From positions 6,035-70,034 of the forward strand of contig CAMYUQ010000001.1 of NCBI GenBank assembly GCA_947302045.1: a stretch of DNA of 64,000 nt, written 5' to 3'. Within the stretch, counting starts at the first letter, position 1; the number at the start of each line of letters is the position of its first letter. Positions 2,252 through 58,142 of this stretch are shown here, piece by piece. A program made the translations under genes and the position numbers. The notes under the pieces are model-generated. The model was not told where the DNA came from. It did not search any database and saw nothing but the letters and a program-made list of their open reading frames with translations. This DNA is from an uncultured Clostridia bacterium. GTDB lineage: Bacteria > Bacillota > Clostridia > Oscillospirales > CAG-272.

Positions 2252-2274
2252 TCTTTTTTCTCCTTTTCTTTTTC

Positions 2275-2388
2275 GGAAAAGACAGAGCGTCCTTCATGCT
2301 TCGCAACATGAAAGACGCCCTTGCCCTTCTTTTTCTATTTGTCCGTAAAAACGAAAATCGCGCCTTTGAGCCCATGCCCAAAGACGCC
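2275..2388 (-). promoter_or_regulatory. glnN leader attenuator: two tandem terminator-like hairpins with exchangeable arms
   Basis: Read on the minus strand. Hairpin 1 has arms at 2379-2387 and 2360-2368 (GCGTCTTTG / CAAAGGCGC), followed by GATTTTCGTTTTT. Hairpin 2 has arms at 2307-2318 and 2287-2298 (GCGTCTTTCATG / CATGAAGGACGC), followed by TCTGTCTTTT. Both 5' arms start GGCGTCTTT, so CAAAGGCGC can pair with either one. Confidence 0.55.
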
Positions 2389-2408
2389 ATTGCCTTTTCA
2401 CGAGAGTC

Positions 2409-2437
2409 ATTATACAACGCGAAAAACGATTTGTCAA
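2409..2437 (-). promoter_or_regulatory. sigma-A promoter for glnN-amt (perfect consensus)
   Basis: Minus strand reads TTGACA (2437-2432), a 17-nt spacer, then TATAAT (2414-2409). This gives a ~150-nt leader before the glnN ATG. Confidence 0.8.
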
Positions 2438-2477
2438 CCCCTTTTTTCAAAAAAATCGAAAAAATTTTTGTTTTCTC

Positions 2478-2506
2478 TTGACAAACCGAATTTTGCGGCG
2501 TATAAT
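2478..2506 (+). promoter_or_regulatory. sigma-A promoter for the glutamate synthase/glnA operon (perfect consensus)
   Basis: TTGACA 2478-2483, 17-nt spacer, TATAAT 2501-2506. It lies back-to-back with the glnN promoter. Confidence 0.8.
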
Positions 2507-2534
2507 ACAATTCAATGAGCAAAGGCGTTCATTT

Positions 2535-2581
2535 CGCGCGGGAAATTTCCCGCCGGGAGTGAGCGCGCTTTTTCTTTTTTT
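2535..2581 (+). terminator. Leader terminator/attenuator upstream of the first glutamate synthase gene
   Basis: GCGCG (2536-2540) pairs with CGCGC (2564-2568). This encloses the perfect palindrome GCGGGAAATTTCCCGC and is followed by TTTTTCTTTTTTT. It sits between the promoter and the SD AAAGGAGG. Confidence 0.55.
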
Positions 2582-2608
2582 ATAGGTACAAAGGAGGAGT
2601 TACAAACG

Positions 2609-3706
2609 ATGAATATGCGCGAGGGAGAGGTACGCATCCCGTCGGGATGTGCGATCGCCGCGGTGATTTCCAAAGAAGGAAAGCGCATGACGGCGGAAAA
2701 GATCATGGACGCCATGAAACCCATGCACGACCGTTCCAACGGCCTGGGCGGCGGATTTGCCGGCTACGGGATTTATCCCGAATACCGCGATTTTTACGCT
2801 TTCCATCTGTTTTTTGACAGCCGCGACACCAGAAAGCGGTGCGAAGCATTCCTCAAAGAGGGATTTGAAATCGTCCGGGGCGAGACCATTCCGACAAGGA
2901 AGATTCCCGCGATCACCGACGAACCGATCATCTGGCGGTATTTCGTCTCGCCGCTTCGCTCGGTGCTTGCCGACCTGCAACTCGATGAAAAGGAATTTGT
3001 CGCGCGGACGGTTATGAAGATCAATACCGAGATGAAGGGCGCTTACGTTTTTTCAAGCGGTAAGAACATGGGAACGTTCAAGGCGGTCGGGTATACCGAG
3101 GACGTCGGGGTGTTCTATCGGCTGGATGAATACGAAGGGTACAGTTGGACGGCACACGGACGCTATCCGACCAATACCCCCGGTTGGTGGGGCGGCGCGC
3201 ACCCATTTACCCTGCTCGATTATTCGGTCGTCCACAACGGGGAGATTTCCTCCTACGACGCCAACCGACGCTTTATGGAAATGTTCGGCTACAAATGCAC
3301 CCTGCAAACCGACACCGAGGTCATTACCTACATTTTAGACTATTTGATCCGCCGTCAGGGGTTGACGCCGACCGAGGCGGCAAACGTGATCGCCGCACCG
3401 TTCTGGACTACGATCGACGGCAAAAGAGACGCATACGAAAAGGCAAAACTGCAATACCTGAGAACCGTTTTCCCGAGTTTGCTCGTCACCGGTCCCTTTT
3501 CCATCGTTCTCGGCTTTGACGGCGGACTGATGGCGCTCAACGATCGATTGAAACTGCGTTCGATGGTGGTTGGCGAGCTGGACGACAAAGTGTTCATCGC
3601 CAGCGAGGAAGCCGCCATCCGCGCCATGGAGCCGAACGCGGGAAAAATCTGGTCGCCCGCCGGCGGAGAACCGGTGATCGTGGCGGTCAAGGAAGGAGCA
3701 TACTGA
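2609..3706 (+). CDS. Glutamate synthase domain 1: class II (Ntn) glutamine amidotransferase, stand-alone subunit
   Basis: 365 aa. Has ..RIPSGCAIAAV.. (catalytic Cys at residue 14) and ..HGRYPTNTPGWWGGAHPF..VVHNGEISSY.. class II GATase motifs. SD AAAGGAGG. The stop lies 1 nt before the next start. Confidence 0.85.
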   Translation: MNMREGEVRIPSGCAIAAVISKEGKRMTAEKIMDAMKPMHDRSNGLGGGFAGYGIYPEYRDFYAFHLFFDSRDTRKRCEAFLKEGFEIVRGETIPTRKIPAITDEPIIWRYFVSPLRSVLADLQLDEKEFVARTVMKINTEMKGAYVFSSGKNMGTFKAVGYTEDVGVFYRLDEYEGYSWTAHGRYPTNTPGWWGGAHPFTLLDYSVVHNGEISSYDANRRFMEMFGYKCTLQTDTEVITYILDYLIRRQGLTPTEAANVIAAPFWTTIDGKRDAYEKAKLQYLRTVFPSLLVTGPFSIVLGFDGGLMALNDRLKLRSMVVGELDDKVFIASEEAAIRAMEPNAGKIWSPAGGEPVIVAVKEGAY

Positions 3707-3707
3707 T

Positions 3708-5213
3708 ATGGGAGTTGAATTTATCTATCCGGAATTTGAAGTGGTCCGTAATGAATCCCGCTGCATTCGCTGCCGCGTTTGCGAGCGGCAATGTGCGAAT
3801 GAGGTGCATTCGTTTGACGCGGAGCATCAGGTGATGCTCTCGGACGAAACCAAGTGCGTGAACTGTCAGCGTTGTGTTTCGCTCTGCCCCACGAGGGCAC
3901 TCAAAATCGTCAAGAGCGATTGCACCCTGCGCGAAAATGCCAACTGGCAGAACGATACGATCAAAGAGATCTACAAGCAGGCGAACAGCGGCGGCGTTCT
4001 GCTCTCATCGATGGGCAATCCGAAACCGCTCCCCGTTTATTGGGATAAGATCCTGATCAACGCCTCACAGGTCACCAATCCGCCGATCGACCCCTTGCGC
4101 GAGCCGATGGAAACGAAGGTCTTTCTGGGAAAGAAGCCCGAAAAGATCACACGCGGCGCGGACGGATCGATCGACTGCACGCTTCCGCCGCAGGTCGAGC
4201 TTGCCATGCCGGTCATGTTCTCGGCGATGAGTTACGGTTCGATCAGCTACAATGCCCACGCGTCTCTTGCTCGTGCGGCAACCGAGCTGGGGATCCTATA
4301 CAACACCGGGGAGGGCGGATTGCACGAAGATTTTTATCAATACGGCAAAAACACGATCGTGCAGGTCGCATCGGGACGCTTCGGCGTGCATGAGGATTAT
4401 CTCAATGCCGGCGCGGCGATCGAGATCAAGATGGGACAGGGTGCAAAGCCGGGCATCGGCGGGCACTTGCCCGGAGCAAAGATTGTCGGAGACGTTTCCC
4501 GGACGCGTATGATCCCGGAGGGATCGGACGCGATCTCCCCTGCTCCGCACCACGATATCTATTCTATTGAAGACTTGCGGCAGCTCGTCTTTTCGCTCAA
4601 AGAAGCAACGAGATACCAAAAACCTGTCATCGTTAAGGTTGCGGCGGTTCATAATATTGCCGCCATTGCCAGCGGCATTGCCCGGAGCGGAGCAGACATC
4701 ATTGCCATCGACGGCTTCCGCGGCGGAACCGGCGCCGCTCCCACGCGCATCCGCGACAACGTGGGGATTCCGATCGAGCTTGCGTTGGCGGCGGTCGATC
4801 AGAGATTGCGCGACGAGGGGATCCGCAACAATGTATCGCTCGTTGTCGGAGGTTCGATCCGCTCGGCATCTGACGTGATCAAAGCCATCGCCCTCGGTGC
4901 CGACGCCTGTTACGTTGCTACCGCCGCACTGCTCGCGCTCGGCTGTCATCTCTGCCGCACCTGCCAGACCGGCCGGTGCAACTGGGGCATCGCAACCCAG
5001 CGTCCCGATCTGGTCAAGCGCCTCAATCCCGATATCGGTTCCGCGCGGCTCGTCAATCTGATGACGGCATGGCGGCACGAGATCATGGAAATGATGGGCG
5101 GCATGGGCATCAACTCGGTGGAAGCGTTGCGCGGCAACCGTCTGATGCTTCGCGGCGTCGGGCTGAACGAAAAAGAATTGGAAATTCTCGGAATTTCCCA
5201 CGCGGGGGAATGA
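3708..5213 (+). CDS. Glutamate synthase FMN-binding (GltS) domain protein with N-terminal 2x[4Fe-4S] ferredoxin module
   Basis: 501 aa. Cys clusters CIRCRVCERQC and CVNCQRCVSLCP, then ..SAMSYGSIS..GEGG..IKMGQGAKPGIGGHLPG.. typical of the GOGAT FMN domain. Confidence 0.88.
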   Translation: MGVEFIYPEFEVVRNESRCIRCRVCERQCANEVHSFDAEHQVMLSDETKCVNCQRCVSLCPTRALKIVKSDCTLRENANWQNDTIKEIYKQANSGGVLLSSMGNPKPLPVYWDKILINASQVTNPPIDPLREPMETKVFLGKKPEKITRGADGSIDCTLPPQVELAMPVMFSAMSYGSISYNAHASLARAATELGILYNTGEGGLHEDFYQYGKNTIVQVASGRFGVHEDYLNAGAAIEIKMGQGAKPGIGGHLPGAKIVGDVSRTRMIPEGSDAISPAPHHDIYSIEDLRQLVFSLKEATRYQKPVIVKVAAVHNIAAIASGIARSGADIIAIDGFRGGTGAAPTRIRDNVGIPIELALAAVDQRLRDEGIRNNVSLVVGGSIRSASDVIKAIALGADACYVATAALLALGCHLCRTCQTGRCNWGIATQRPDLVKRLNPDIGSARLVNLMTAWRHEIMEMMGGMGINSVEALRGNRLMLRGVGLNEKELEILGISHAGE

Positions 5214-5216
5214 AAA

Positions 5217-5657
5217 ATGAAACGTGTTTATGTCAACGAAGAATGGTGTCTGGGCTGCCATTTGTGCGAATATAACTGTGCGTTTGCCAATTCTGGCATG
5301 AAAAACATGGCGATGGCTCTGAAAGATCAAGCGATATTTCCGCGCATCCACGTTGAGGGTGACGACAAAATCACCTTTGCCGTCTCCTGTCGGCATTGCA
5401 GCGATCCCATCTGTGTCAAAAGCTGCATTGCCGGAGCGATTTCCAAGCAGAACGGCGTGGTAAAGATCAACCGGGAAAAGTGCGTTGGTTGTCTGACCTG
5501 CGTCCTTGTCTGTCCCTACGGTGCGCTCGCACCGGGCAAGGACGGCGCTATGCAGAAATGCGAACTGTGTCTGGAAAACGCCTGCGGCTCGCCCGCCTGC
5601 GTTGCCGGATGCCCCAATAACGCCATTGTTTATGAGGAAAGAGGGAACGAAAAATGA
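5217..5657 (+). CDS. 4Fe-4S dicluster ferredoxin-domain protein
   Basis: 146 aa with repeated CxxCxxCxxxC(P) motifs (CLGCHLCEYNC, CVGCLTCVLVCP, CELC..C..C). Its stop overlaps the next start (ATGA at 5654-5657). Confidence 0.8.
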   Translation: MKRVYVNEEWCLGCHLCEYNCAFANSGMKNMAMALKDQAIFPRIHVEGDDKITFAVSCRHCSDPICVKSCIAGAISKQNGVVKINREKCVGCLTCVLVCPYGALAPGKDGAMQKCELCLENACGSPACVAGCPNNAIVYEERGNEK

Positions 5658-6886
5658 GACGATATGTAATCATCGGTAACGGTACCGCCGCCGTCGGCTG
5701 CGTGGAGGGGATCCGCTCGGTGGATAAAACCGGAGAGATCACCATTATTTCCGAAGAGAATCATGCGGTTTACAGCCGTCCGCTCATTTCCTACTATCTG
5801 GAAGGAAAAACCGACTTGGAGCGCATGAAATACCGTGGCGATTCCTTCTATGCGGATAACGGTTGCAAAGTCCTCTTCGGGAAGCGTGCGGCTTTGCTGG
5901 ACGCAGAAAAGAAACAGGTCGTTCTGGACGACCAAACGACGCTTCCCTACGACAAGGTTTGTGTTGCCGCCGGGTCGCGCCCGTTCGTTCCGCCCTTTGA
6001 GGGGCTGGAAACGGTTGAAAACAAATTTTCCTTTATGACGCTGGACGACGCGCTTGCCCTGGAAAAAGCACTGAACGAGCGATCCAAAGTCCTGATCGTC
6101 GGCGCCGGGCTGATCGGGCTCAAATGCGCCGAGGGGATTTGCGGACGCGTCAAGAGTATCACGGTTTGCGACCTTGCCGACCGGGTACTTTCCAGCATTC
6201 TGGATTTTGACTGCGCCGCCGTTGCGCAAAAGCACCTGGAAGAAAACGGCATCCGCTTTTTGCTCGGCGACACCGCCGTCCGCTTCGAAGGAAACCGGGC
6301 GTGTATGAAGAGCGGTAAGGTGGAAGAATTTGACGTTCTGGTACTCGCCGTCGGCGTTCGCGCCAATACGGAACTCGTCAAAAATGCAGGCGGAGAAGTC
6401 AATCGCGGGATTGCGGTCAATCCCAAAATGGAAACTTCGCTGCCCGATGTTTTTGCGGCAGGCGACTGTACCGAGGGCTATGATTCCTCGCTGGGCGCAA
6501 ACCGCGTGCTTGCCATTCTTCCAAACGCCTATTTGCAGGGGCAAACCGCAGGCGGCAACATGGCAGGCGGCAACGTTGCCTTCGAAAATGCGATCCCCAT
6601 GAACTCGATCGGCTTCTTCGGCTTCCATATCATGTCGGCAGGAACCTACGACGGTGAGCGGATCGAAGAGCGGACGGAAAAAGCGATCAAACGCTTTTTC
6701 GTCAAAGACGGATTCTTAAAAGGATTTATTCTATTGGGCGAGACGGAGCGCGCCGGAATCTACACTTCTCTGATCCGCGAAAAGACGCCGCTCGATACCG
6801 TTAATTTCGATTTGATGAAAAAAGTTGCCTCGAATTTGATTTATTCGCAAGAAAAACGTAGAAAAAAGTTTGGAGATGTAGTATAA
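5654..6886 (+). CDS. NAD(P)/FAD-dependent pyridine nucleotide-disulfide-type oxidoreductase
   Basis: 410 aa. N-terminal Rossmann motif VIIGNGTAAVG and a second dinucleotide motif VLIVGAGLIGLKCAE. Translationally coupled within the cluster. Confidence 0.8.
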   Translation: MRRYVIIGNGTAAVGCVEGIRSVDKTGEITIISEENHAVYSRPLISYYLEGKTDLERMKYRGDSFYADNGCKVLFGKRAALLDAEKKQVVLDDQTTLPYDKVCVAAGSRPFVPPFEGLETVENKFSFMTLDDALALEKALNERSKVLIVGAGLIGLKCAEGICGRVKSITVCDLADRVLSSILDFDCAAVAQKHLEENGIRFLLGDTAVRFEGNRACMKSGKVEEFDVLVLAVGVRANTELVKNAGGEVNRGIAVNPKMETSLPDVFAAGDCTEGYDSSLGANRVLAILPNAYLQGQTAGGNMAGGNVAFENAIPMNSIGFFGFHIMSAGTYDGERIEERTEKAIKRFFVKDGFLKGFILLGETERAGIYTSLIREKTPLDTVNFDLMKKVASNLIYSQEKRRKKFGDVV

Positions 6887-6887
6887 T

Positions 6888-7610
6888 ATGATTATCGATA
6901 CACAAAATCTCGATCACCGCGCGATCAACGAAGCGATCCGCAAGGCCGGAAACGACTGCGAAATCACCGGTTGTCTCGGTCAACGCTTCCTTTGCGCCGG
7001 AATGACGGGCGGGAACGTGACGATTTCAGGCGGCATTCCCGGCAACGCGCTGGGCGCATACCTCAACGGCGGAACCGTCACCGTCCGCTCAAATGCGCAG
7101 GACGCTGTGGGCGATACCATGAACGCCGGCGAGATCGTCATTCACGGCAACGTCGGAGATGCGGTAGGTTACGCAATGCGAGGCGGAAAAATTTACGTTC
7201 AGGGCGACGCCGGCTACCGCGCCGGTATTCACATGAAAGCGTATCGGGAAAAGATCCCGGTGCTTGTCATCGGCGGAAAAGCCGGCAGTTTCCTCGGTGA
7301 ATATCAGGCGGGCGGCGTCATCGTCGTGCTCGGGCTGACCGAAAATGATCGGCGCATCGTGGGGAACTTCCCCGGTACGGGTATGCACGGCGGCAAAATG
7401 ATCCTGCGCTCGGAATGCCGGGACGTCGTTTTTCCCGGTCAGGTCACTGCAAGAGCGGCAACGCCCGAGGATTTCAAAGAAATCGAAACCTACGTTTCTG
7501 AATATTGCGCCTTGTTCGGCGGCTCGACAAAGGAAATTCTGGATTCCCCGTTCACCGTGGTCACGCCGGACAGTAAAAATCCCTACCGGCAGCTTTACGT
7601 TGCCAACTGA
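6888..7610 (+). CDS. GXGXG-motif protein (glutamate synthase alpha-subunit C-terminal domain homologue)
   Basis: 240 aa with beta-helix-like repeats ..GNVGDAVGYAMRGGKIYVQGDAGYRAG..IGGKAGSFLGEYQAGG... Starts 1 nt after the previous stop. Confidence 0.82.
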   Translation: MIIDTQNLDHRAINEAIRKAGNDCEITGCLGQRFLCAGMTGGNVTISGGIPGNALGAYLNGGTVTVRSNAQDAVGDTMNAGEIVIHGNVGDAVGYAMRGGKIYVQGDAGYRAGIHMKAYREKIPVLVIGGKAGSFLGEYQAGGVIVVLGLTENDRRIVGNFPGTGMHGGKMILRSECRDVVFPGQVTARAATPEDFKEIETYVSEYCALFGGSTKEILDSPFTVVTPDSKNPYRQLYVAN

Positions 7611-7625
7611 AAAAAGGAGGACACC

Positions 7626-8834
7626 ATGAACTATTCCAAAGAAGAGGTCCTGCAATACGTTGCCGAGGAGGACGTCAAGTTTATCCGTTTGGCATTTTGC
7701 GACGTATTCGGAAAACAGAAGAACATTTCCATTATGCCGGAAGAGCTGCCGCGCGCGTTTGCGTACGGCATCGCGTTCGATGCTTCCGCCATCGCAGGAT
7801 TTGGCGACGAGGCGCACTCCGACCTCTTTCTGCACCCCGATCCCGAGACGCTGACCTGGCTTCCGTGGAGGCCAGAACACGGCAAGGTGGTGCGGATGTT
7901 CTGCACCATTACCTACCCGGACGGCAGACCCTTTGAATGCGATACCCGAACGCTCCTCAAACAGGCAGTCGACGACGCAAAAGCGGCAGGTTATACCTTC
8001 TTTTTCGGTGCGGAGCAGGAATTTTATCTCTTTGAGCTGGATGAAAAAAACGAGCCGACCAAAGTCCCTTACGACAAAGCCGGCTATATGGACATTGCCC
8101 CGGAGGATCGGGGAGAGAACGTCCGCCGCGAGATCTGTCTGACGCTGGAACAGATGGGCATCCGTCCCGAAAGTTCCCATCACGAGGTGGGCCCCGGGCA
8201 GAACGAGATCGACTTCCGTTACGCCGACGCGCTTGCCGCCGCCGATAACGTTATGACCTTTCAAACGGTCGTTAAAACGGTGGCTCGCCGCAACGGGCTT
8301 TATGCTGATTTTTCTGCAAAACCGCTCCCCGGCGTTCCCGGCAACGGGTTCCATATCAACTGTTCGGTCAAGCCGGGAGAGACCCCTGCGGCGCAGGAAA
8401 AACCGGTTGCCGGCGTTCTGGATAAGATCGTTCCCATGACCGTTTTCCTCAATCCGACCGCGCAGTCCTACGAGCGTCTCGGGCAGATGAAAGCGCCCAA
8501 ATACGTTTCCTGGTCGCACCAGAACCGCTCCCAGTTGGTGCGTATTCCGGCGGCGGAGGGCGAATACCGCCGCGCCGAACTGCGTTCGCCAGACCCCTCG
8601 GCAAACCCCTATATCGCCTTTGCGCTTATGATTCGAGCCGGACTTTACGGGATTCAAAACGGGTTGACGCTCCCGGCTCCGGTGGACTTGAATCTTTACC
8701 GCGCAGACAGTGCGGCAACGAAAGACCTGCAAACACTTCCAACCTCGTTGGAGGCGGCAAAAGCCGCGGCAAAAGCAGATGAATGGATCAAAAAGAACAT
8801 TCCCGAGAAGATTCTGAATCTTTACTGCAAGTAA
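7626..8834 (+). CDS. glnA: Glutamine synthetase, short type I-like (402 aa)
   Basis: Beta-grasp N-domain (VKFIRLAFCDVFGKQKN) and catalytic domain (GAEQEFYLF, HHEVGPGQNEIDF, NRSQLVRIP). SD AAAGGAGGA. Confidence 0.88.
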   Translation: MNYSKEEVLQYVAEEDVKFIRLAFCDVFGKQKNISIMPEELPRAFAYGIAFDASAIAGFGDEAHSDLFLHPDPETLTWLPWRPEHGKVVRMFCTITYPDGRPFECDTRTLLKQAVDDAKAAGYTFFFGAEQEFYLFELDEKNEPTKVPYDKAGYMDIAPEDRGENVRREICLTLEQMGIRPESSHHEVGPGQNEIDFRYADALAAADNVMTFQTVVKTVARRNGLYADFSAKPLPGVPGNGFHINCSVKPGETPAAQEKPVAGVLDKIVPMTVFLNPTAQSYERLGQMKAPKYVSWSHQNRSQLVRIPAAEGEYRRAELRSPDPSANPYIAFALMIRAGLYGIQNGLTLPAPVDLNLYRADSAATKDLQTLPTSLEAAKAAAKADEWIKKNIPEKILNLYCK

Positions 8835-8873
8835 TTTCCGATTGAAAAATTCGGTGAAAGGAGGGGACGGAAT

Positions 8874-9458
8874 GTGAGTCTGAAAGAACAGGTTTACAGC
8901 GTTTTGGTCGTTTCGGCATCCGAAAAAATCAATCTGGCATTATCCGAGCAATTTTCCGTTCCGACCTTCTCGCCGGTTCAGGTGGTTGCGGGCGTCAGCG
9001 TCGCAAAACGAGCACTTGCGGAACGGGATTTCGACTTCGTGGTGGTAAATTCCCCGCTGCCGGACGACACGGGCGTTCGATTCTCCATTGACGCGGCAAA
9101 CGATTCCGGGGCTGTGGTGCTGTTTCTGGCAAGAGCCGATCAATATGAAGACGCCTATGAAAAACTCGCCGCAAACGGAGTGTTCCTCATGCAAAAACCG
9201 ATTGCGAAAACGGTATTGCAAATTGCTTCCGAATGGTTGATCAGCGCACGCGAGGGCTTGCGCAAGAGCCATAAAAAAACGATGTCCATTGAGGAAAAGA
9301 TGAACGAAATCCGGCTCGTTAACCGCGCGAAATGGTTACTCATCAGCGAGCTGAAAATGAGCGAATCCGACGCTCACCGCTACATTGAAAAGCAGGCAAT
9401 GGACCGATGCGTTCCGAAAGGTCTCGTTGCGGAGGAAATTATCAAATTATATCACTGA
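8874..9458 (+). CDS. ANTAR-domain RNA-binding antiterminator with receiver-like N-domain
   Basis: GTG start after AGGAGGGGA. The C-terminus ..IEEKMNEIRLVNRAKWLLISELKMSESDAHRYIEKQAMDRCVPK.. is a typical ANTAR helix bundle. Last gene of the nitrogen operon. Confidence 0.8.
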   Translation: MSLKEQVYSVLVVSASEKINLALSEQFSVPTFSPVQVVAGVSVAKRALAERDFDFVVVNSPLPDDTGVRFSIDAANDSGAVVLFLARADQYEDAYEKLAANGVFLMQKPIAKTVLQIASEWLISAREGLRKSHKKTMSIEEKMNEIRLVNRAKWLLISELKMSESDAHRYIEKQAMDRCVPKGLVAEEIIKLYH

Positions 9459-10117: not shown

Positions 10118-11791
10118 TTATTTGAGGATCACATTTTCCGCTCCCAGAAGCGCTTGGAATTCCCGGACAAGGTAATCGCTCAAAGCGATGCCCCTCCCCG
10201 AAAAATCGTACTGCCCGACGGAGGCGTCGTAGTAGGCGATCGGGAAAGAACCCTCGAAAATTTCCGCCAGGTTGACCGCCTTTCTATACTGCTCGCTCTC
10301 CCGGTCGGGAACGCGCAGATACAACCGTTTGGGCATTGCAGGTCGGGTGTTTCCTTTCGGTTCGGACGGCGACACTTGCGAAACCGTCGGATCCGGTTCG
10401 GTGTAGCGGTCGTTTTCAATCAGTTCTTCCAGCCGGTTCAGATTCAGTTTCGGCGGCTCATCCTCTCGCAGGGAGAGCGTCCCGGTGGCAAAAACGGCGT
10501 TATCCGAACGGATCAGACGTCCGTATTCGGCAAAAAGATTCGGAAACGCGATGCATTCGATCTCTCCGAACTGGTCTTCCAGTGAAAAGAACGCCATTCG
10601 CTCTCCTTTTTTGGTGTTCTTGACCGTTACCGAGGTGATCATCCCGGCAACCGATACGCGCGTGCGGTCGGCAAGGTCCGCATCCTCTCCGACTAGAGTT
10701 GAGATCGGCGTCGGATGCAAAACGGCAAGCTGTTTGGAAAAGCTCTCCATCATCTCGCCCGAGAAGAACATCCCTGCCGCTTCCCTCTCCATCATCAGCT
10801 TCTCCCGCACACTGAATTCGGGAAGATTCGGGTAGGAAAACAGAGACGGTTGCTCTGCCGCGTTCGGCATGGAAAAGAGATCCAACTGTCCTGCCAGATT
10901 GTTCTTGTCCTTTTCCGACGCCTGTTGGATCAGCCGTTCGTGAGCCGCCATCAGACGACTGCGATAAACGCCCAAACGGTCAAAGGTTCCCGCCTTGATC
11001 AGCGATTCTACCATCCGTTTGTTCAAATCCCCCGCGCTCATGCGGCTGATAAAATCTTCAAACGAGCTGAATTTCCCGTTTTGCTCCCGTTCGGAAAGGA
11101 TCTGTTCGAGAAATTGTCTGCCCACATTTTTGATCGCCAACAGTCCGAACCGGATGTCTTTTCCCGAAGTGGAAAACGGGATCCGGCTCTCGTTGATGTC
11201 CGGCGGAAGTGTTCGGATCCCGCGCGCGGAACATTCTCCCATATATTCGGCGATTTTGGTCTGATTGCCGAGCACGCTCGTCATCAGCGCCGAGAGATAG
11301 GCGCTCGGGTAGTGCTGTTTGAGGTACGCCGTGCGATAGGAAATCAGCGCGTAGGCGGCGGCGTGCGACTTATTGAACGCATAGTTTGCAAAGCTCTCCA
11401 TATCGGAAAAGAGCTTTTCGGCGACTTCCTGTTCCACCCCGTGTCCTTTTGCACCCATGACAAAAGCTTCCCTCTCGGAGAGCAGAACGTCGGCTTTCTT
11501 TTTGGACATGGCGCGGCGAACGATATCGGCGTGTCCGAACGAATAGCCCGCCACGTCCCGGAAGATCTGCATGACCTGCTCCTGATAGACCACGCACCCG
11601 TAGGTGGACCGCAGGATCGGTTCGAGCAGAGGCGTTTCGTAGGTTACCTCCTCCGGATGATGCCGGCATTTGACGAACCGCGGGATCGAGTCCATCGGCC
11701 CCGGACGGTAGAGGGCGATCGCGGCGATGATGTCGTCGATCCGCTCGGGCGCGAGTCCGGTCAGCATTTTCTGCATCCCTGCCGATTCCAA
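10118..11791 (-). CDS. dnaE: DNA polymerase III alpha subunit DnaE, C-terminal part (ATG-to-stop ORF; the same frame stays open upstream to the TAG at 11894-11896)
   Basis: ..ESAGMQKMLTGLAPERIDDIIAAIALYRPGPMDSIP.. plus the downstream HhH and OB-fold regions typical of DnaE. Stop TAA. Confidence 0.9.
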   Translation of the reverse strand: MESAGMQKMLTGLAPERIDDIIAAIALYRPGPMDSIPRFVKCRHHPEEVTYETPLLEPILRSTYGCVVYQEQVMQIFRDVAGYSFGHADIVRRAMSKKKADVLLSEREAFVMGAKGHGVEQEVAEKLFSDMESFANYAFNKSHAAAYALISYRTAYLKQHYPSAYLSALMTSVLGNQTKIAEYMGECSARGIRTLPPDINESRIPFSTSGKDIRFGLLAIKNVGRQFLEQILSEREQNGKFSSFEDFISRMSAGDLNKRMVESLIKAGTFDRLGVYRSRLMAAHERLIQQASEKDKNNLAGQLDLFSMPNAAEQPSLFSYPNLPEFSVREKLMMEREAAGMFFSGEMMESFSKQLAVLHPTPISTLVGEDADLADRTRVSVAGMITSVTVKNTKKGERMAFFSLEDQFGEIECIAFPNLFAEYGRLIRSDNAVFATGTLSLREDEPPKLNLNRLEELIENDRYTEPDPTVSQVSPSEPKGNTRPAMPKRLYLRVPDRESEQYRKAVNLAEIFEGSFPIAYYDASVGQYDFSGRGIALSDYLVREFQALLGAENVILK

Positions 11792-11893
11792 CTGAAAGAT
11801 GCCGGACGTTTTTCCGGAACTGATGAGCTGATAGGTTGCCGCGTCGTCAAGCGGGATTTTTTCAATATCAAATTCCGGCGCCTCTTCCCGGAT

Positions 11894-13609
11894 CTACTCT
11901 TCCACGTCCCGGATAATGGTCAGATACCGGAGCGCGAGAAAATCGAATTTCAGCAGTCCGAGTTTTGCGACCGTGTCCATATCAAACTGGGTCACGACCG
12001 TTCCGTTGCTCATGGAAAGCGGAACGTAATCCGAAACCGGGCGATCCGTGATGACAACCCCCGCCGCGTGAACCGATACGTTGCGCGGCATTCCTTCGAG
12101 CGCCATCGCGGTATCCACCAGCCGCCGCACCTGCGCGGAACCGTCGTACAAACGTTTCAGATCCGGCATTTTGAGTGCTACCGGAATGGTGATTCCGAGC
12201 TCCTGCGGCACAGCGCGAGCCACGACGTCCACGTCCGCGTAGCTCATTCCGAGCGCACGTCCGACATCCCGGATGGATGCGCGCGCCGCAAGCGTTCCGA
12301 AGGTAATGATCTGCGAGACGTGATCTTCTCCGTATTTCCGGCTCACGTAATCAATGACTTCATCCCGACGGTTGTAGCAAAAATCGATATCAAAGTCTGG
12401 CATACTGACGCGTTCCGGGTTGAGGAAACGCTCGAAAAGCAGATCGAACCGCAAGGGATCGACGTCGGTGATCCCGATGCAGAACGCCACCAGACTCCCT
12501 GCTCCCGAACCTCTCCCAGGGCCGACCGGAATGCCGGTTTGTTTGGCATAGGATACATAGTCCTGCACGATCAGAAAATAATCTTCATATCCCATCTTTT
12601 CGATGACCGAAAGCTCGTATCCGATCCGCTCCCGGTATTCGGACTCGCTATGCAGGTCAAGCGAGAATCTCCCTCCCGACAACCGTTTTGAAAAGCCCTC
12701 TTCTGTCACTTCCCGCAGATAAGCGGCGGCGGTCTTCCCTGCCGGACAGGGGTATTTCGGCAAATAGGTGGTGGAGAAATCAAAGGTGACCTGACAGCGG
12801 TCGGCGATCCGAACGGTGTTTTCGAGTGCCTCCGGATACCCTTTGAAGAGCATCGACATTTCATTTTCATCTTTGAGATAGAATTCATCGGTCGCAAATG
12901 CGGCGGGACGACCGGCATCGACCGTTGTGTTGGTCTGAATGCACATCAGAACCGCCTGCTTATCGGCATCCTCCCGGCGCAGATAATGGCAATCGTTGGT
13001 CGCCACCGTCGGGATCCCGCATTCCTCGGCGAGCTTTGCAAGCACGGGAAGCATGGTTCTCTGCTCGGGCAGTCCGTGGTTCTGCAATTCGATGAAGAAG
13101 TTTCCCTCTCCGAACAATTCCCGGTATTGCAGAGCCGTTTCTTTGGCACTCGCGTAGTCTCCTTTTGCGAGCAGCTTCGGAATCTTTCCGCCGAGGCAGG
13201 CCGAAAGCGCAATCAGTCCGCCCGCGTGGCGGCGAAGCAGTTCTTCATCGACGCGCGGCTTGTTGTAAAAGCCCTCGGTAAAAGAGAGCGACACCATTTT
13301 GGAGAGATTGCGGTATCCCTCATTGTTCTCACAAAGCAGGACGAGATGATCGGCATAGCCGTCGTCGCCGCGGGTCTTTTCAAACCGGGAACCGCGCGCC
13401 ACATAAACTTCGCACCCGATGATCGGTTTGATTCCCGCTTCGGTACAGGCACGGTAAAATTCCACCGCGCCATACATGACGCCGTGGTCGGTGATCGCAA
13501 CCGCGCCCTGCCCGGCTTCCGATACCCGCTTCGGGATCTCCCGGATCCGGCAGGCGCCGTCGAGCAGACTGTATTCACTGTGCAGATGCAGGTGTACGAA
13601 CCGGTTCAC
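11894..13609 (-). CDS. dnaE: DNA polymerase III alpha subunit DnaE, N-terminal part (PHP + palm), ending at an in-frame TAG
   Basis: GTG start at 13607-13609 after GAGGGAGGGA. MNRFVHLHLHSEYSLLDGA.. is the PHP domain. The ORF ends ..LRYLTIIRDVEE-TAG, and the next codons in the same frame read IREEAPEFDIEKIPLDDAATYQLISSGKTSGIFQLES. Confidence 0.9.
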   Translation of the reverse strand: MNRFVHLHLHSEYSLLDGACRIREIPKRVSEAGQGAVAITDHGVMYGAVEFYRACTEAGIKPIIGCEVYVARGSRFEKTRGDDGYADHLVLLCENNEGYRNLSKMVSLSFTEGFYNKPRVDEELLRRHAGGLIALSACLGGKIPKLLAKGDYASAKETALQYRELFGEGNFFIELQNHGLPEQRTMLPVLAKLAEECGIPTVATNDCHYLRREDADKQAVLMCIQTNTTVDAGRPAAFATDEFYLKDENEMSMLFKGYPEALENTVRIADRCQVTFDFSTTYLPKYPCPAGKTAAAYLREVTEEGFSKRLSGGRFSLDLHSESEYRERIGYELSVIEKMGYEDYFLIVQDYVSYAKQTGIPVGPGRGSGAGSLVAFCIGITDVDPLRFDLLFERFLNPERVSMPDFDIDFCYNRRDEVIDYVSRKYGEDHVSQIITFGTLAARASIRDVGRALGMSYADVDVVARAVPQELGITIPVALKMPDLKRLYDGSAQVRRLVDTAMALEGMPRNVSVHAAGVVITDRPVSDYVPLSMSNGTVVTQFDMDTVAKLGLLKFDFLALRYLTIIRDVEE

Positions 13610-18277: not shown

Positions 18278-18524
18278 AAAAAGAAAGCCCCCACCCTTGC
18301 ACAGGGCGTGGAGCACGCGGTACCACCTGTTTTTGTTCTCAAATCCGATAACGGCGGAACCGTTGCAGACTACTGACTTCACCCGCACCGCTCGGGAACG
18401 ACTTCGCCTTTCCGTGTTCTCCGGCTCGCACCGTCCGCCGGCTCTCTTTGCAACCGTAAAAAGCTACTCTTCTCCGTCTTTGCGTTTACGCGAATAGTAT
18501 AGCACAGCTTTTCGGCTTTGTCAA
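18278..18524 (-). promoter_or_regulatory. T-box leader (Val specifier GUC) with its promoter, upstream of valS
   Basis: Minus strand has TTGACA (18524-18519), a 17-nt spacer and TATACT (18501-18496). The conserved T-box AGGTGGTACCGCG is at 18328-18316. GAA-GTC-A and GAA-GTC-G specifier-like contexts are present. Terminator is CACGCCCTGTGCAAGGGTGGGGGC + TTTCTTTTTT. Confidence 0.88.
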
Positions 18525-18925: not shown

Positions 18926-19996
18926 TCAGAACACTGCCACGGGCATCAGTTTTTCGATCAATCCGATCATGCGGGGATCCTTTTCAAATAGTTTGAATCT
19001 CTCCCCTTTCAGTACTTTCAGAAGCAGTCCGGACTGGTTTTCGGTAAAATTCTTTACGCCGTCCGCGCAGGATAATTTCACCTTGTTTACCAGAAAAGAA
19101 GTGTACATTCCGTCTTTCAGCGTATCGGATTTGATCGCGTGTTCCGCGGATTTTTCAAGACATTCAAACATTTTCTCCGTATCGTTTAATTTCAAATAAT
19201 CTTTCGCCGTTTCCCGGTAGAATTCCGCATATCTCACATGAAAAAAACCGCAGTTTCCGTCCGAATAAAGCAAATCGAACAACTGAATCAAAAATTCATA
19301 CGCCCGGATCGTCTCTTCCGGCGTGTATTTTCCCTTCATGCACATCATTTGCGTATTCAGATTGATCATATCAAAAAGGGCTTGCACGTTGGTCTGGCAG
19401 TATTCGACCGCCTCGTCGCCTTCCAGCAGGCGCGGCATCAATTCATTGACGGTAATAGAGTAGTTATACGCCATTTTCGCGTATTGCTTTGCGGATTCCG
19501 CATCTTTTTTCGCATAATAATAAGTGAAACAAAGGCATTGGATCGCCCCGCCCCGTAGAACGCTGTCGGTAGATTCTTCCAGAATCCGCTTGCCGTATTC
19601 GATGATCTCGTCGGCGTTTTCTTTGCGGTCTTCCGCAGACAGAGCATACATCAAACCGTGAATGACCGACATCTCGTTCGGAAATTCTTTTTCCGCCTCT
19701 CTCCAAAGGGCAACGCGCTCCGAAGTTTTGCCTTCGTGGAACAATTCCATGTCCTTTTTCTCATACGAATTCAGTTTTTTCTCTTTTTCGATCGTTCCGA
19801 CGCCGAGAAGATCGTCAATGCTCACATTGTAATAGGAAGCGATCGCGGGCAGCAAGGTGATATCCGGATATCCTTCCTCCCTTTCCCATTTGGAAACCGC
19901 TTGCATCGTGATCCCGAGATACGCCGCCAGTTCTTCCTGCGTATTGCCCTTTTCCCTGCGCAATTTTTTGAGTTGTTCGCTCAGATAAATGTTCAT
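18926..19996 (-). CDS. XRE-family HTH regulator with ~290-aa helical-repeat (TPR-like) C-domain
   Basis: Start at ATG 19994-19996 (MNIYLSEQLKKLRREKGNTQEELAAYLGITMQAVSKWEREEGYPDITLL..LLGVG) after GGGAGGAG. The C-terminus is rich in paired helices. Confidence 0.8.
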   Translation of the reverse strand: MNIYLSEQLKKLRREKGNTQEELAAYLGITMQAVSKWEREEGYPDITLLPAIASYYNVSIDDLLGVGTIEKEKKLNSYEKKDMELFHEGKTSERVALWREAEKEFPNEMSVIHGLMYALSAEDRKENADEIIEYGKRILEESTDSVLRGGAIQCLCFTYYYAKKDAESAKQYAKMAYNYSITVNELMPRLLEGDEAVEYCQTNVQALFDMINLNTQMMCMKGKYTPEETIRAYEFLIQLFDLLYSDGNCGFFHVRYAEFYRETAKDYLKLNDTEKMFECLEKSAEHAIKSDTLKDGMYTSFLVNKVKLSCADGVKNFTENQSGLLLKVLKGERFKLFEKDPRMIGLIEKLMPVAVF

Positions 19997-20267
19997 TTTC
20001 TCCTCCCGTATTTCGATAATAAGAAACAAGCGCCTGTTCTTGCTTTCAGTATAACAGATAACCCACCGAAAAGCAATAACCGTATTGTTGACGAGCGGTT
20101 GTTTTTTTCAACGAATGGTTTAGAAAATGACAAAAGCAAGATTGCAGACGCCGCGTACCATTTACTCATCCATCAGGTCGCAACCTTGCCGGCTTATCAT
20201 CCGCTCTGCTTTGTCAACTACTTTCCCGATATTTCGCAAGAAACGCAAAAATAATTTCGGAAAACTC

Positions 20268-20296
20268 TTGACAAAGTACGATCAGCGTGATATAAT
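20268..20296 (+). promoter_or_regulatory. sigma-A promoter for the tRNA-Met/tRNA-Glu pair (perfect consensus)
   Basis: TTGACA 20268-20273, 17-nt spacer, TATAAT 20291-20296. Confidence 0.8.
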
Positions 20297-20313
20297 ATTC
20301 AAGCGTTGAGCAT

Positions 20314-20390
20314 GGCGGGATAGCTCAGTTGGCTAGAGCAACCGGTTCATACCCGGTAGGTCATGGGTTCAAGTCCAATTCCCGCTACCA
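20314..20390 (+). tRNA. tRNA-Met (anticodon CAT; elongator-like)
   Basis: 77 nt: GGCGGGATAGCTCAGTTGGCTAGAGCAACCGGTTCATACCCGGTAGGTCATGGGTTCAAGTCCAATTCCCGCTACCA. Cloverleaf with anticodon loop TTCATAC and encoded CCA. A lysidine-modified Ile2 identity cannot be excluded by eye. Confidence 0.9.
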
Positions 20391-20392
20391 TC

Positions 20393-20467
20393 GGCCCGTT
20401 GGTCAAGAGGTTAAGACACCGCCCTTTCACGGCAGTAACAGCAGTTCGATTCTGCTACGGGTCACCA
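20393..20467 (+). tRNA. tRNA-Glu (anticodon TTC)
   Basis: 75 nt: GGCCCGTTGGTCAAGAGGTTAAGACACCGCCCTTTCACGGCAGTAACAGCAGTTCGATTCTGCTACGGGTCACCA. Acceptor GGCCCGT/ACGGGTC, encoded CCA. Confidence 0.9.
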
Positions 20468-20475
20468 AACGTAAC

Positions 20476-20522
20476 AAATCCGAACTATTTCGTAAATCGA
20501 AATTGGTTCGGATTTGTTTTTT
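20476..20522 (+). terminator. Intrinsic terminator after the tRNA pair
   Basis: AAATCCGAAC..GTTCGGATTT stem followed by GTTTTTT. Confidence 0.8.
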
Positions 20523-20552
20523 ACTATAATTACTCAAGTTAATGCCAAATGT

Positions 20553-20643
20553 ACCGCCGAGAGCAACCTAACGGTTACTCTCGGCGGTTTGTGTTAAACA
20601 TTTGCAGCTACCTCTTTAAAATATCACAAAAATATGATATAAT
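20553..20643 (+). repeat. Copy 1 of a ~90-bp terminator-hairpin + promoter module
   Basis: ACCGCCGAGAGCAACCTAACGGTTACTCTCGGCGG (20553-20587) matches 22006-22040 at 32 of 35 positions. About 45 nt further, ..ATATGATATAAT (TGnTATAAT at 20635-20643) repeats at 22097-22105. Confidence 0.7.
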
Positions 20644-20789
20644 AAATACGGCTTAAACGCGACCATTTGATTTCGAACGAATATTATAAATGCGTTTGTA
20701 GTGGAGTTAACGATTTGTTATATTTTTTTTCTGAGTATTTACTGCTATAATGTCATCAGAAAGAGTAGCTACGATCTTTCTATCAAATC

Positions 20790-21968
20790 ATGAAAGAAGG
20801 AATGAATATGTTGAATTTTGGTCAAAAAATTAAGAAGTTGCGCACGGATGCAGGCTTGTCGCAAGCGATGCTTGCTGAACACATTGGTGTTTCGGTTCAG
20901 TCTATATCCAACTGGGAATGTAATAACACCATGCCGGATATCTCTCAAATTGTTCCGCTTGCAAGCATCCTTTGTGTTTCAACCGATTATTTACTCGGAG
21001 TCGGATTCGACGAAAAAGCCGATCACGAAGCACTTATCCGCAACGTGAACACCGTTTGGGCAAATTATTCCGTCAACACAAAAGAAAACAATGCCGATTT
21101 GTTGGTCGCTGATCTGTATAAAGAGTATCTGCGCAAGTATCCTACCGATTACGAGGCAAAATATAAGTGCGCTTTGGCTTTATACGATTATCTTTTGGTA
21201 GACAAGGTAAGAGGAAAATTTCATATTGAAGCAGATGCCTATGAGTCAATCTACACTCCGTGCAAATCGATGCTGTCCTCGGTTTGTAACAACACCTTGA
21301 AAATAGAGCTTCAGATAAATGCCAATCAGTTGATGATCGTGCTTTTGCTCTTGAACGATAACTTTGATGAAGCTCTGCATTTCGTTGAAATGCTTCCGGA
21401 AACGTGCGGAATCAAATGCGAGGCACAAAGCAAGGTGTTGTACGCTCAAAAAGCAAACGGCAAGGCAAATCAAGTAAAGTTGATGGCAGATAAAGAAAAA
21501 TGCTTGAATTACCTGATGGCATTGTACGAGAGCGTGATTTCCGGTGCATATGAGAAAGATAAATCACTCTCGGTATTGGAGCACGCCGAAAGCACTGCAA
21601 AAACGGCAGTATCTTTGTATATGGATGCAACAACGCTTGCCGTGAATTCTTATGAAAAAATGCCGTATTGCTATCTGATCACGGCGTACACTATGATGTG
21701 CAAAATTCATTTGCTGAATAGCGATTACGATGCTGCATATACAGCGCTTGACAAAGCCGCAAAAACAGCGTGTGAAATGTATGTGTGGGTAAAAGGAAAG
21801 ACACAAGATAAAGAAATTTTGGCAGATTACAAGTTCTTTGCTGAAAAGACCCCTCATTGGGCATTTAGTTTTAGCGGCTTGTATTCAAGTGAAGATAATG
21901 ATTTCACAAGGTCGGAATGTTATAAAAACGCAGTTAAAGAAATCGAGAAAGTTCTTTGTGATGCTTAA
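20790..21968 (+). CDS. XRE-family HTH regulator with ~300-aa helical-repeat C-domain (AT-rich paralogue of 18926-19996)
   Basis: ..MLNFGQKIKKLRTDAGLSQAMLAEHIGVSVQSISNWECNNTMPDISQIVPLASILCVSTDYLLGVG... In-frame ATGs at 20790, 20802 and 20808; the last has the best SD spacing (AGAAGGA). Confidence 0.8.
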   Translation: MKEGMNMLNFGQKIKKLRTDAGLSQAMLAEHIGVSVQSISNWECNNTMPDISQIVPLASILCVSTDYLLGVGFDEKADHEALIRNVNTVWANYSVNTKENNADLLVADLYKEYLRKYPTDYEAKYKCALALYDYLLVDKVRGKFHIEADAYESIYTPCKSMLSSVCNNTLKIELQINANQLMIVLLLLNDNFDEALHFVEMLPETCGIKCEAQSKVLYAQKANGKANQVKLMADKEKCLNYLMALYESVISGAYEKDKSLSVLEHAESTAKTAVSLYMDATTLAVNSYEKMPYCYLITAYTMMCKIHLLNSDYDAAYTALDKAAKTACEMYVWVKGKTQDKEILADYKFFAEKTPHWAFSFSGLYSSEDNDFTRSECYKNAVKEIEKVLCDA

Positions 21969-44783: not shown

Positions 44784-46214
44784 ATGTCCGAGAACGAAGA
44801 ACTGAACGAAATCGTTTCAAACGAAGATCTTGTGGAAAACAAAAAAGAACATCTCCGGGAATTGCTCGAAACAAAGCATTATGCCGCTTTCATTCGCGCA
44901 ATGGATGAAATGATCCCGGTTGACGCCGCGGAATTTCTCTCGGAGCTTCCGACAAACCGCGCGTCGGTCGCATTCCGAATGCTCAAAAAAGATACCGCCG
45001 CCACCATTTTCGCAGAACTTGAACCCGATCTGCAAACGTCTCTGGTTGGCGCCATGACCGACCGCGAAGTCCATGACATTCTGGAAGAGCTCTACGTCGA
45101 CGACGCCGTCGATATGCTCGAAGAAATGCCGGCAAACGTCGTCAAACGGATCCTCAAAAACGCCACGAAAGAAACACGCGCCGAGATCAACCGCTTCCTT
45201 TCCTACCCTGAGGACAGCGCCGGAAGCGTGATGACGAGCGAGTTTATTGACCTGACCAAAACGATGACCTGTACCCAGGCGATCGAACACATCCGGCGAA
45301 CCGGTATCGACAAAGAAACGGTCTACGTTGCCTACGTGACCGATTCCTCCCGGGTTCTGGAAGGCGTGGTTCCGCTCAAACATCTGCTCTTCTCGGAGCC
45401 GGACGAGATCATCGAGAACATCATGAATACCAACGTGGTCTATGCGCATACGCAGGATGACCAGGAAACGGTTGCGAACATGATCTCGCACTACGACTTG
45501 ATCGCTCTTCCCATCGTGGACAAAGAGGAACGGCTGGTCGGGATCGTAACGGTCGACGATGCTCTGGACGTCCTTGAAGCCGAGGCAACCGAGGACATTG
45601 AAAAAATGGCGGCTATTTTGCCGACCGACAAGCCCTACCTTAAAACCGGCATCTTTGAAACTTGGAGAAAGCGTATTCCGTGGCTGTTGCTGCTGATGGT
45701 TTCGGCAACCTTTACCAGCACCATCATCACGCATTACGAAGTCGCCATCGGACGATACGCCGTTTTGACCGCGTTCTTCCCGATGCTCATGGATACCGGC
45801 GGAAACGCCGGCGGGCAAACGTCCGTCACCATTATCCGCGGACTCTCTCTGGGAGATATCCGGATGCGGGATATTTTGCGCGTCCTCTGGAAAGAGCTGC
45901 GCGTTTCTATGCTTTGCGGCGCAACCATTGCCGCCGCCACCTTTATCAAAGTCTTTGCGATCGACTTCAAATTCAAGCCGTCTGTGATGGTCGGCGAAGC
46001 CCTGCAAAACAATCTGCAGATCTGCCTGATTATCTGCATGACGGTATTCTTCGCGATCGTTGTGGCAAAACTGGTCGGCGCAACGCTGCCGATCCTGGCA
46101 AAGCGCATCGGATTCGACCCTGCCGTGATGGCTTCTCCGTTCATTACCACCATTGTGGACGCCGTCACGCTGGTCATCTATTTTGCCATCGCTTCGAGCA
46201 TTCTCAAATTTTAG
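44784..46214 (+). CDS. mgtE: Magnesium transporter MgtE
   Basis: 476 aa. N-domain, 2 CBS domains and TM domain ..PMLMDTGGNAGGQTSV... Ends in TAG (46212-46214), with a terminator hairpin starting 11 nt later. Confidence 0.92.
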   Translation: MSENEELNEIVSNEDLVENKKEHLRELLETKHYAAFIRAMDEMIPVDAAEFLSELPTNRASVAFRMLKKDTAATIFAELEPDLQTSLVGAMTDREVHDILEELYVDDAVDMLEEMPANVVKRILKNATKETRAEINRFLSYPEDSAGSVMTSEFIDLTKTMTCTQAIEHIRRTGIDKETVYVAYVTDSSRVLEGVVPLKHLLFSEPDEIIENIMNTNVVYAHTQDDQETVANMISHYDLIALPIVDKEERLVGIVTVDDALDVLEAEATEDIEKMAAILPTDKPYLKTGIFETWRKRIPWLLLLMVSATFTSTIITHYEVAIGRYAVLTAFFPMLMDTGGNAGGQTSVTIIRGLSLGDIRMRDILRVLWKELRVSMLCGATIAAATFIKVFAIDFKFKPSVMVGEALQNNLQICLIICMTVFFAIVVAKLVGATLPILAKRIGFDPAVMASPFITTIVDAVTLVIYFAIASSILKF

Positions 46215-46224
46215 GATCGCAAGC

Positions 46225-46272
46225 AAAAGAAGGGATCCGAAAAGCCGGCGACTTTTCGGATCCCTTCTTTTT
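46225..46272. terminator. Bidirectional terminator between mgtE and the lipoprotein gene
   Basis: AAAAGAAGGGATCCGAAAAG..CTTTTCGGATCCCTTCTTTTT. Confidence 0.85.
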
Positions 46273-48559: not shown

Positions 48560-48620
48560 TGTTTTGTTCTCCTTTTTTATAAAAAATGGATTCGCAAGAA
48601 AAATGTTTTTTCTCATGGAA

Positions 48621-48649
48621 AGTATAGCATATTTCTTCTTGTTTGTCAA
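48621..48649 (-). promoter_or_regulatory. Promoter of the lipoprotein gene
   Basis: Minus strand reads TTGACA (48649-48644), 17-nt spacer, TATACT (48626-48621). Confidence 0.7.
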
Positions 48650-57912: not shown

Positions 57913-58126
57913 AGCGAAGCGGTACGCCGCCGAGTTGAGATCCCGAACCGGTTCCGATGGGAAACGATTAACAGACAATCAAATCAATTTTCGGATCGGA
58001 TATTTGCGAGCCCGACAGGATGCCGGAGAGGCATATCGCGCGTGGAAAGCGTCGCAGCGTCGTGGCAGCTTTGACACCGATGAATTTTATCAGGCCGCGC
58101 TGCGGCGAACAAAACAAAAGAAATGA
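57863..58126 (+). CDS. Hypothetical small basic protein (87 aa)
   Basis: Overlaps the previous gene by 50 nt in another frame. ..KRYAAELRSRTGSDGKRLTDNQINFRIGYLRARQDAGEAYRAWKASQRRG..RRTKQKK. Start uncertain. Confidence 0.45.
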   Translation: MPNNSERTVIGLHPRDKAKRYAAELRSRTGSDGKRLTDNQINFRIGYLRARQDAGEAYRAWKASQRRGSFDTDEFYQAALRRTKQKK

Positions 58127-58142
58127 GAAAAAAGGAGAAAAC

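Follow-up and report, generated by a model that had tools for sequence, protein, structure and literature searches.

An in-frame TAG at a conserved glutamine codon of an otherwise intact clostridial dnaE gene, most likely not a real biological feature

The stretch of DNA examined here, 64,000 nucleotides from an uncultured Clostridia bacterium (hereafter the window), carries on its minus strand a dnaE gene, which encodes the DnaE-type alpha subunit of DNA polymerase III (Pol III) and whose reading frame is interrupted by one TAG codon. The gene order murB-whiA-dnaE-cyclase is common to two related loci, L081 and L089. In the list of open reading frames (ORFs) dnaE appears as two pieces, an N-terminal one of 571 amino acids that starts with GTG (11894..13609, stop included) and a C-terminal one of 557 amino acids that starts with TTG (10118..11791). 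Translation of the whole interval 13609..10118 gave a single in-frame stop, at codon 572 (...LRYLTIIRDVEE, stop, IREEAPEFDIEKIPLDDAATYQLISSGKTSGIFQLES...), and the residues past this TAG follow in the same frame (...LRYLTIIRDVEE, stop, IREEAPEFDIEKIP...). Neither frameshifts nor further stops were found in the 1163-codon translation. The coordinates of the gene, of the lesion and of the codons used for comparison are collected in Table 1.

With Gln placed at codon 572, the joined protein scored 1523.9 bits against the NCBIfam model NF005298 (DnaE equivalog; PRK06826), whose cut-off is 1260, and the match ran end to end, residues 2-1162 covering positions 3-1150 of a profile of 1151. Pfam domains followed one another across the two halves in the order PHP, DNA_pol3_alpha (amino acids 297-559), finger, HHH_6 and OB, while PolC models scored far under their cut-offs on the joined protein, the architecture being that of DnaE and not that of PolC. 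The match to the finger domain sets in at profile position 17, only 5 residues past the TAG, and therefore the stop lies at the palm/finger junction; a DnaE cut at residue 571 is without the finger, clamp-binding, HhH and OB parts. The region around the TAG could also be aligned to solved Pol III alpha structures, in which the site corresponds to Ile in the Thermus aquaticus enzyme. The gene thus has the full-length score and the domain order of a DnaE, and its frame is broken by the TAG at codon 572. Given the finger, HhH and OB domains and the end-to-end match to NF005298, the in-frame continuation downstream of the stop is not a product of chance.

Table 1. Positions of dnaE, of its in-frame TAG and of the codons compared with it (window coordinates unless a related locus is named)
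Feature	Position	Strand	Remarks
dnaE (DNA polymerase III alpha subunit, DnaE type)	13609..10118	minus	1163 codons including one internal TAG
Natural dnaE stop, TAA	10118-10120	minus	
In-frame TAG, codon 572	11896..11894	minus	plus strand reads CTA at 11894-11896
Changed base	11896	minus	coding strand C to T, plus strand G to A
N-terminal ORF, 571 codons	11897..13609	minus	PHP domain, amino acids 6-178; polymerase NTPase/palm domain, amino acids 297-559
In-frame continuation, 591 codons	10121..11893	minus	finger, HhH and OB domains; dN/dS 0.075
First start-type codon after the TAG, TTG	11789..11791	minus	encodes Leu of the GIFQLES motif
Codon 569, GTG (Val)	11903..11905	minus	Ala in the 120 closest homologues, with at most one exception; relatives GCG or GCC
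mgtE stop TAG (46212-46214), followed by 20-bp hairpin and U-tract	46212..46272	plus	context control
CAG at the site	L081, L082, L085, L086, L089, L090		six loci, four distinct dnaE sequences
CAA at the site	L084		
ATG at the site	L083		

We compared the interrupted codon with its counterparts in homologous proteins and related loci. The site could be located in 119 of the best 120 homologues, and the column contained Q in 83 of them, M in 22, L in 9, E in 3, and K and G in one each. The closest proteins, ~90% identical (P0001, P0241, P0243 and P0244), all carry Q. At the DNA level, L089 and the window share the 24 nt round the site apart from GCG/GTG, a synonymous GAA/GAG and CAG/TAG. The relatives all have a sense codon here (CAG, CAA or ATG), and of 120 dnaE fragments not one stops at the column of codon 572. 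The lesion is therefore a single C to T transition, CAG to TAG, at an ancestral Gln. An earlier examination of the same DNA, made from its letters alone (the sequence-only reading), had taken Leu to be the residue at this position and proposed a change from TTG to TAG; the composition of the column and the codons of the relatives correct this proposal. The comparison with orthologous dnaE genes that it had called for gave a sense codon in the relatives, CAG in six loci.

The gene was examined for decay by several measures. As reference for the ratio of non-synonymous to synonymous substitution rates (dN/dS) we took L081, at 85% nucleotide identity. The ratio was 0.068 in the upstream half and 0.075 in the downstream half, with 0.056 in the 100 codons that directly follow the stop, and the counts of synonymous and non-synonymous codons (165:50 upstream, 177:60 downstream) did not separate the halves (Fisher p = 0.66). 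An alignment of 121 sequences contained 456 near-invariant columns, and the DnaE of the window deviates at 3 of them; the 120 homologues average 1.2 deviations at the same columns, and 15 of the 120 have at least 3. The gene does not show the marks of a decaying pseudogene, dN/dS being low on both sides, the stop being the only one, the frame being free of shifts and the deviations lying within the range of intact homologues. The description of a single in-frame TAG in an intact, non-decaying dnaE, given by the sequence-only reading, was thereby borne out (one stop at codon 572, full-length match to NF005298, low dN/dS). A downstream dN/dS of 0.075 shows that the continuation has been translated, and that purifying selection has acted on it in full, over practically its entire history. 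The stop is either extremely recent, or not a stop in vivo, or absent from the DNA, and the lesion, judged by these substitution patterns, is very young.

One of the 3 deviations at near-invariant columns, all of them unique, lies next to the stop. It is Ala569Val, produced by a coding-strand C to T change at window position 11904, which is 8 nt (3 codons) away from the TAG base at 11896. We estimate at ~0.015 the probability that, of three such deviations, one would by chance lie no more than 3 codons from the stop. This proximity suggests that Ala569Val and the TAG belong to one local event, which could be damage to the template or its mis-calling, the entry of a minority haplotype into the consensus, or a real clustered mutation. 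The neighbouring change at codon 569 marks a stretch of locally unreliable sequence.

We also looked for independent copies of the organism. In a collection of 15 billion proteins, the 571-residue fragment had one identical entry (P0245), which comes from one 85,396-bp NCBI/ENA contig. Ten other proteins of the window were looked up, 8 of which were present in the collection, all on that same 85,396-bp contig, and 7 of these 8 formed singleton clusters at 90% identity. Protein searches with the full DnaE, with its N-terminal half and with a 234-residue segment across the site returned nothing closer than 90%; a 27-nt DNA pattern around the TAG had no match in the JGI metagenomes; and exact look-ups of the 571-residue fragment, WhiA, the cyclase and MurB in a gene-position index gave no record. 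The TAG is attested by a single draft-type assembly, and no second copy replicates it.

The TAG is one base away from a Gln codon and young, no other damage accompanies it in the gene or in the window, and TAG otherwise serves as a terminator here. Considered together with the single assembly and with the neighbouring change, a technical error or a non-representative allele has, in our judgement, somewhat better than an even chance of being the explanation; we infer a technical change and not one that living cells carry, and the dnaE TAG is most likely not a real biological feature. In this scenario a single very recent C to T change would have turned the conserved Gln572 codon of dnaE, CAG, into TAG, and the TAG and the nearby GCG to GTG change would most likely not belong to the working gene of the organism. 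Both would stem from template damage or from an error of sequencing or consensus in the sole assembly, an 85-kb contig of draft or metagenome type. The cell would then make a normal full-length DnaE from CAG; no special decoding mechanism would be involved, and TAG would stay a stop under the standard code. Many public dnaE fragments lying inside long contigs end in out-of-frame tails (in the set of 120), and because of these tails broken dnaE ORFs are seen to be common in assemblies, which shows that technical breaks of dnaE have a high base rate. DnaE is essential in Bacillota that contain PolC; for Bacillus subtilis this was reportedly found by Dervyn et al. in 2001. Since DnaE is essential and the truncation loses key domains, a true null should not persist in living cells, and this lethality penalises a real mutation unless there is some rescue.

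The closest known category is the ordinary premature amber codon, or 'internal stop' pseudogene call, of draft genomes. The dnaE case resembles these in being one substitution in an intact conserved ORF, in coming from a single assembly and in having no recoding machinery; unlike them, it affects an essential replication gene and has a second unique C to T change 8 nt away. Its importance is chiefly one of annotation and quality control, since a single base would make this essential dnaE appear as two fragments or as a pseudogene.

Several observations weigh against a technical origin. The rest of the 64-kb window is clean, with no frameshifts or split genes among ~50 genes, and therefore the assembly is not one generally ridden with errors. 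Substitution errors are uncommon in a short-read consensus. A tRNA(Gln) acting as near-cognate or suppressor would bring back exactly the residue that was replaced. Moreover, Q, M, L, E and K are all accepted in the column, where T. aquaticus has Ile, and therefore a real allele could give an active protein if the stop were read through. Finally, the error is deduced from the context of the sequence and is not something seen in reads.

These observations bear on a second explanation, namely that the TAG is a real, very recent nonsense allele and that the cell survives through leaky production of full-length DnaE, through a suppressor or through redundancy. We regard this as possible, at distinctly lower probability than a technical origin. 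The routes to rescue would be near-cognate read-through of UAG with Gln, Tyr or Lys, a spontaneous or mobile amber suppressor tRNA, and PolC or a second DnaE. In its favour, the TAG is present in the sequence itself and the window is otherwise clean. The tolerance of the column for Q, M, L, E and K means that such insertions would probably give an active enzyme, and a suppressor would do little harm, as TAG accounts for ~1-2% of stops in the lineage. In E. coli reporters, premature TAG codons are read through measurably, with insertion of Tyr, Gln and Lys, and a G-rich, T-poor upstream sequence favours this read-through (PMC11126739). The dnaE TAG is directly preceded by AAGAG and has A at +4, a context that, being G-rich and T-free upstream and having a purine at +4, is not unfavourable to read-through of the E. 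coli type (PMC11126739). At a TAG derived from CAG, suppression of the supE type (E. coli tRNA-Gln with a CUA anticodon) or near-cognate read-through would restore the ancestral Gln.

Against a real allele, neither the window nor 86 related loci (1.6 Mb) yielded a tRNA with a CUA anticodon, a difference from supE that leaves read-through of dnaE hypothetical. Basal read-through of UAG usually falls well under what an essential replicase would need. RNA structure that could stimulate read-through was not found in the 161 nt around the stop, whose folding did not differ from that of shuffled sequences (z = 0.07). There is no second assembly with the TAG, and the adjacent C to T change, at an otherwise invariant Ala, resembles damage or error more than a selected state. 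Programmed read-through in particular is unsupported, as the stop is not conserved in orthologues and no RNA structure was found 3' of it. Were the TAG fixed, a viable bacterium with an amber dnaE would imply efficient natural suppression of UAG in a lineage nearly without TAG stops, and such suppression would bear on how the reassignment of stop codons begins.

Whether TAG is decoded differently in this organism was addressed through the use of stop codons. According to crude gene calls, genes of the window end in TGA (25), TAA (23) and TAG (1, mgtE), the dnaE TAG coming in addition to these; a doubtful ORF at 58776-59171 also ends in TAG. When TAG was read as a sense codon, the only pieces to merge among credible genes were the two of dnaE, whose TAG is the sole in-frame one in ~19,000 codons of the window, 549 of them Gln codons. 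In mgtE, the MgtE Pfam domain stops at residue 469 of 476, that is, 7 residues before the TAG, and 10 nt past the TAG there is a perfect 20-bp hairpin (-33.6 kcal/mol, z = -5.8). The mgtE gene shows that TAG works as a genuine terminator in this genome. None of the four tRNAs of the window has a CUA anticodon, and no pyl genes were found in the 64-kb window. A degenerate DNA pattern of the family that requires TAG at the site had no match in the JGI metagenomes, a test of low power, since with the site left free the pattern recognises 5 of the 86 loci.

The rarity of TAG as a terminator extends to the relatives. It ends 0 of 60 genes in L081 and L083-L086 and 1 of 20 in L089 and L090 (1 of 80 together). 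For a more distant baseline we used a contig scan, in which relatives were at most 53% identical among the matches listed; many of the more distant Oscillospirales loci had zero TAG stops, and loci with a guanine plus cytosine (GC) content of 50-60% had 14% overall. In the window, the TAG trinucleotide had an observed/expected ratio of 0.63 under a first-order Markov model, and CTAG occurred 6 times against 60 expected, a ratio of 0.1. Avoidance of CTAG and TAG probably underlies the near-absence of TAG stops in the lineage. The rarity is lineage-wide and compositional, and therefore it is no sign specific to this genome; as a signal of recoding it was rejected, the more so as it is found alongside release factor 1 (RF1) in relatives. 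The gene for RF1, prfA, scored 482.5 bits in L083 against an equivalog cut-off of 423, and the release factors of L083, L084 and L086 have a PCRF/RF-1 domain and the PxT motif and lie at the same position, a few kb from dnaE. The sequence-only reading had been right that TAG is a rare terminator, used besides dnaE only by mgtE and the ORF at 58776-59171, and that no tRNA with a CUA anticodon lies in the window. Among the explanations it listed, an error or a very recent nonsense mutation stands as likely, while the rarity of TAG does not point to suppression in this genome, in view of the lineage-wide trait, the mgtE terminator and RF1.

The same tests bear on an evolved recoding, in which the bacterium or its lineage would read UAG as Gln, in the manner of genetic code 15, or as pyrrolysine, so that dnaE would be intact. 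This explanation accounts for the TAG falling exactly at a conserved Gln column and for the near-absence of TAG terminators (1 of 49 in the window, 1 of 80 in the close relatives); we nevertheless consider it very improbable. There is one in-frame TAG in ~19,000 codons including 549 for Gln, the TAG of mgtE stands where the protein naturally ends and is followed after 10 nt by a strong terminator hairpin, and the relatives carry prfA. The ~90%-identical relatives all have CAG, and the fragments ending at the site (0 of 120), the unmatched TAG-requiring family pattern, low in power as it is, and the window without pyl genes or tRNA(CUA) point the same way, while the rarity of TAG is explained by composition. 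Reassignment of TAG to Gln should bring many in-frame TAGs and the loss of TAG as a terminator, and the window has one such codon and a TAG-terminated mgtE. Pyrrolysine decoding is unsupported, the TAG not being conserved among orthologues, all of which have a sense codon.

In gut phages, TAG is translated as Gln through suppressor tRNAs and the hosts keep the standard code (PMC9523058, PMC10879173). The code 15 of crAss-like, Lak and other gut phages resembles the dnaE case in having TAG at Gln positions. Such phages have many in-frame TAGs, suppressor tRNAs of their own and often genes related to release factors; here, by contrast, one TAG stands in ~19,000 codons of a bacterial chromosome with a TAG terminator. 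No prophage or code-15 region was recognised in the window, the low-GC part at 58-64 kb having no informative PHROG or Pfam match and no ORF there being lengthened when TAG was read as sense. That a tRNA(Gln, CUA), encoded by the chromosome or by a code-15 prophage, translates UAG572 as Gln, as an early capture of the amber codon in a cellular organism, would be a most doubtful proposition. Natural amber suppression as a reading of the dnaE TAG has no positive support, and we give it scarcely any weight.

It remains to consider that the two ORFs are genes in their own right, that is, that DnaE is naturally split into residues 1-571 and a re-initiated C-terminal part, which would assemble or be joined. 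Split dnaE genes do exist, interrupted by introns or inteins: in cyanobacteria a trans-splicing intein divides dnaE, and one relative, L087, has a group II intron without an ORF in its dnaE. Like the dnaE of the window, both the Oscillospirales genes with the group II intron and the cyanobacterial ones with the DnaE intein appear to a gene caller as two ORFs; unlike them, the window has no inserted sequence, the halves abutting in frame with zero intervening bases and only the stop codon between them. No relative is split at this site. In addition, the 34 codons between the TAG and the TTG that follows contain no ATG, GTG or TTG, as the sequence-only reading had noticed in stating that no start after the TAG would keep the GIFQLES segment. 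Because there is no start codon in these 34 codons, a separately started C-terminal product would lose GKTSGIFQ, a conserved part of the finger domain, and re-initiation at the TTG would remove 34 conserved residues in all. The anatomy of the gene effectively refutes re-initiation or a split protein, and the probability that we assign to a natural split is close to nil; a small remainder of the probability is given to none of the explanations.

The intron of L087 deserves a description of its own. It spans L087:10030-10765, is ~0.7 kb long, lacks an ORF and interrupts dnaE at the conserved site YGCIVYQ|EQ; in Rfam it matched RF02004 with 127.6 bits and RF00029 with 54.8 bits. In the intron-split gene, exon 1 is called as a protein of 683 amino acids ending in ...YQGATRS and exon 2 as one of 484. 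This class of intron, lodged in an essential replicase gene, recurs across several related Oscillospirales contigs (P0140-P0144, P0183, P0219 and P0239), and the group II intron therefore accounts for the recurrent 683-residue 'truncated' DnaE proteins in databases.

The surroundings of dnaE differ among the relatives. Copies of prfA are found at L083:3078-4178, L084:3651-4733 and L086:2465-3556, in relatives whose DnaE is 72-76% identical, and in these three loci murB-whiA-dnaE is preceded, at a distance of a few kb, by prfA and sua5. The window has no prfA; there, as in L089 with its ~85% nucleotide identity, the corresponding place is taken by valS, DcuC and a VTT/acyltransferase gene. The valS gene is preceded by a T-box leader (105.9 bits), at 18299-18489 on the minus strand. 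The true start of valS is probably further downstream than that of its longest ORF (912 amino acids), because this ORF overlaps the T-box leader; the L089 orthologue has 886 amino acids. At 18926-21968, XRE/HTH_3-type regulators of 367 (minus strand) and 392 amino acids (plus strand) flank a tRNA-Met/tRNA-Glu pair within a pocket of 40% GC. The syntenic L089 lacks this segment, valS coming immediately after DcuC there.

Elsewhere the window is an ordinary chromosome of the Clostridia type, with genes for nitrogen assimilation, valS, thrS, iscSU, htpG, pgm, mgtE, hprK and others. GATC is over-represented in it, with an observed/expected ratio of 1.26. The interval 57900-64000 has a GC content of 42-45%, compared with ~54% elsewhere, and its ORFs, which include one of 836 amino acids at 60711-63221 and the basic protein of 131 amino acids at 58776-59171 that ends in TAG, have no Pfam match. 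Its sole PHROG match, at 59852-60736, is weak (E = 4e-4) and to a family of unknown function. The interval may be a horizontally acquired island. On the minus strand, at 46295-48649, there is an ORF of 784 amino acids with a strong coding signal and no Pfam or PHROG family, situated directly downstream of the bidirectional terminator hairpin that it shares with mgtE. Finally, the interval 155-9458 contains a compact nitrogen-assimilation cluster with two glutamine synthetases (type III and type I), a regulator with an ANTAR domain, and a glutamate synthase whose GATase, FMN, ferredoxin, oxidoreductase and GXGXG parts are each encoded by a gene of their own.

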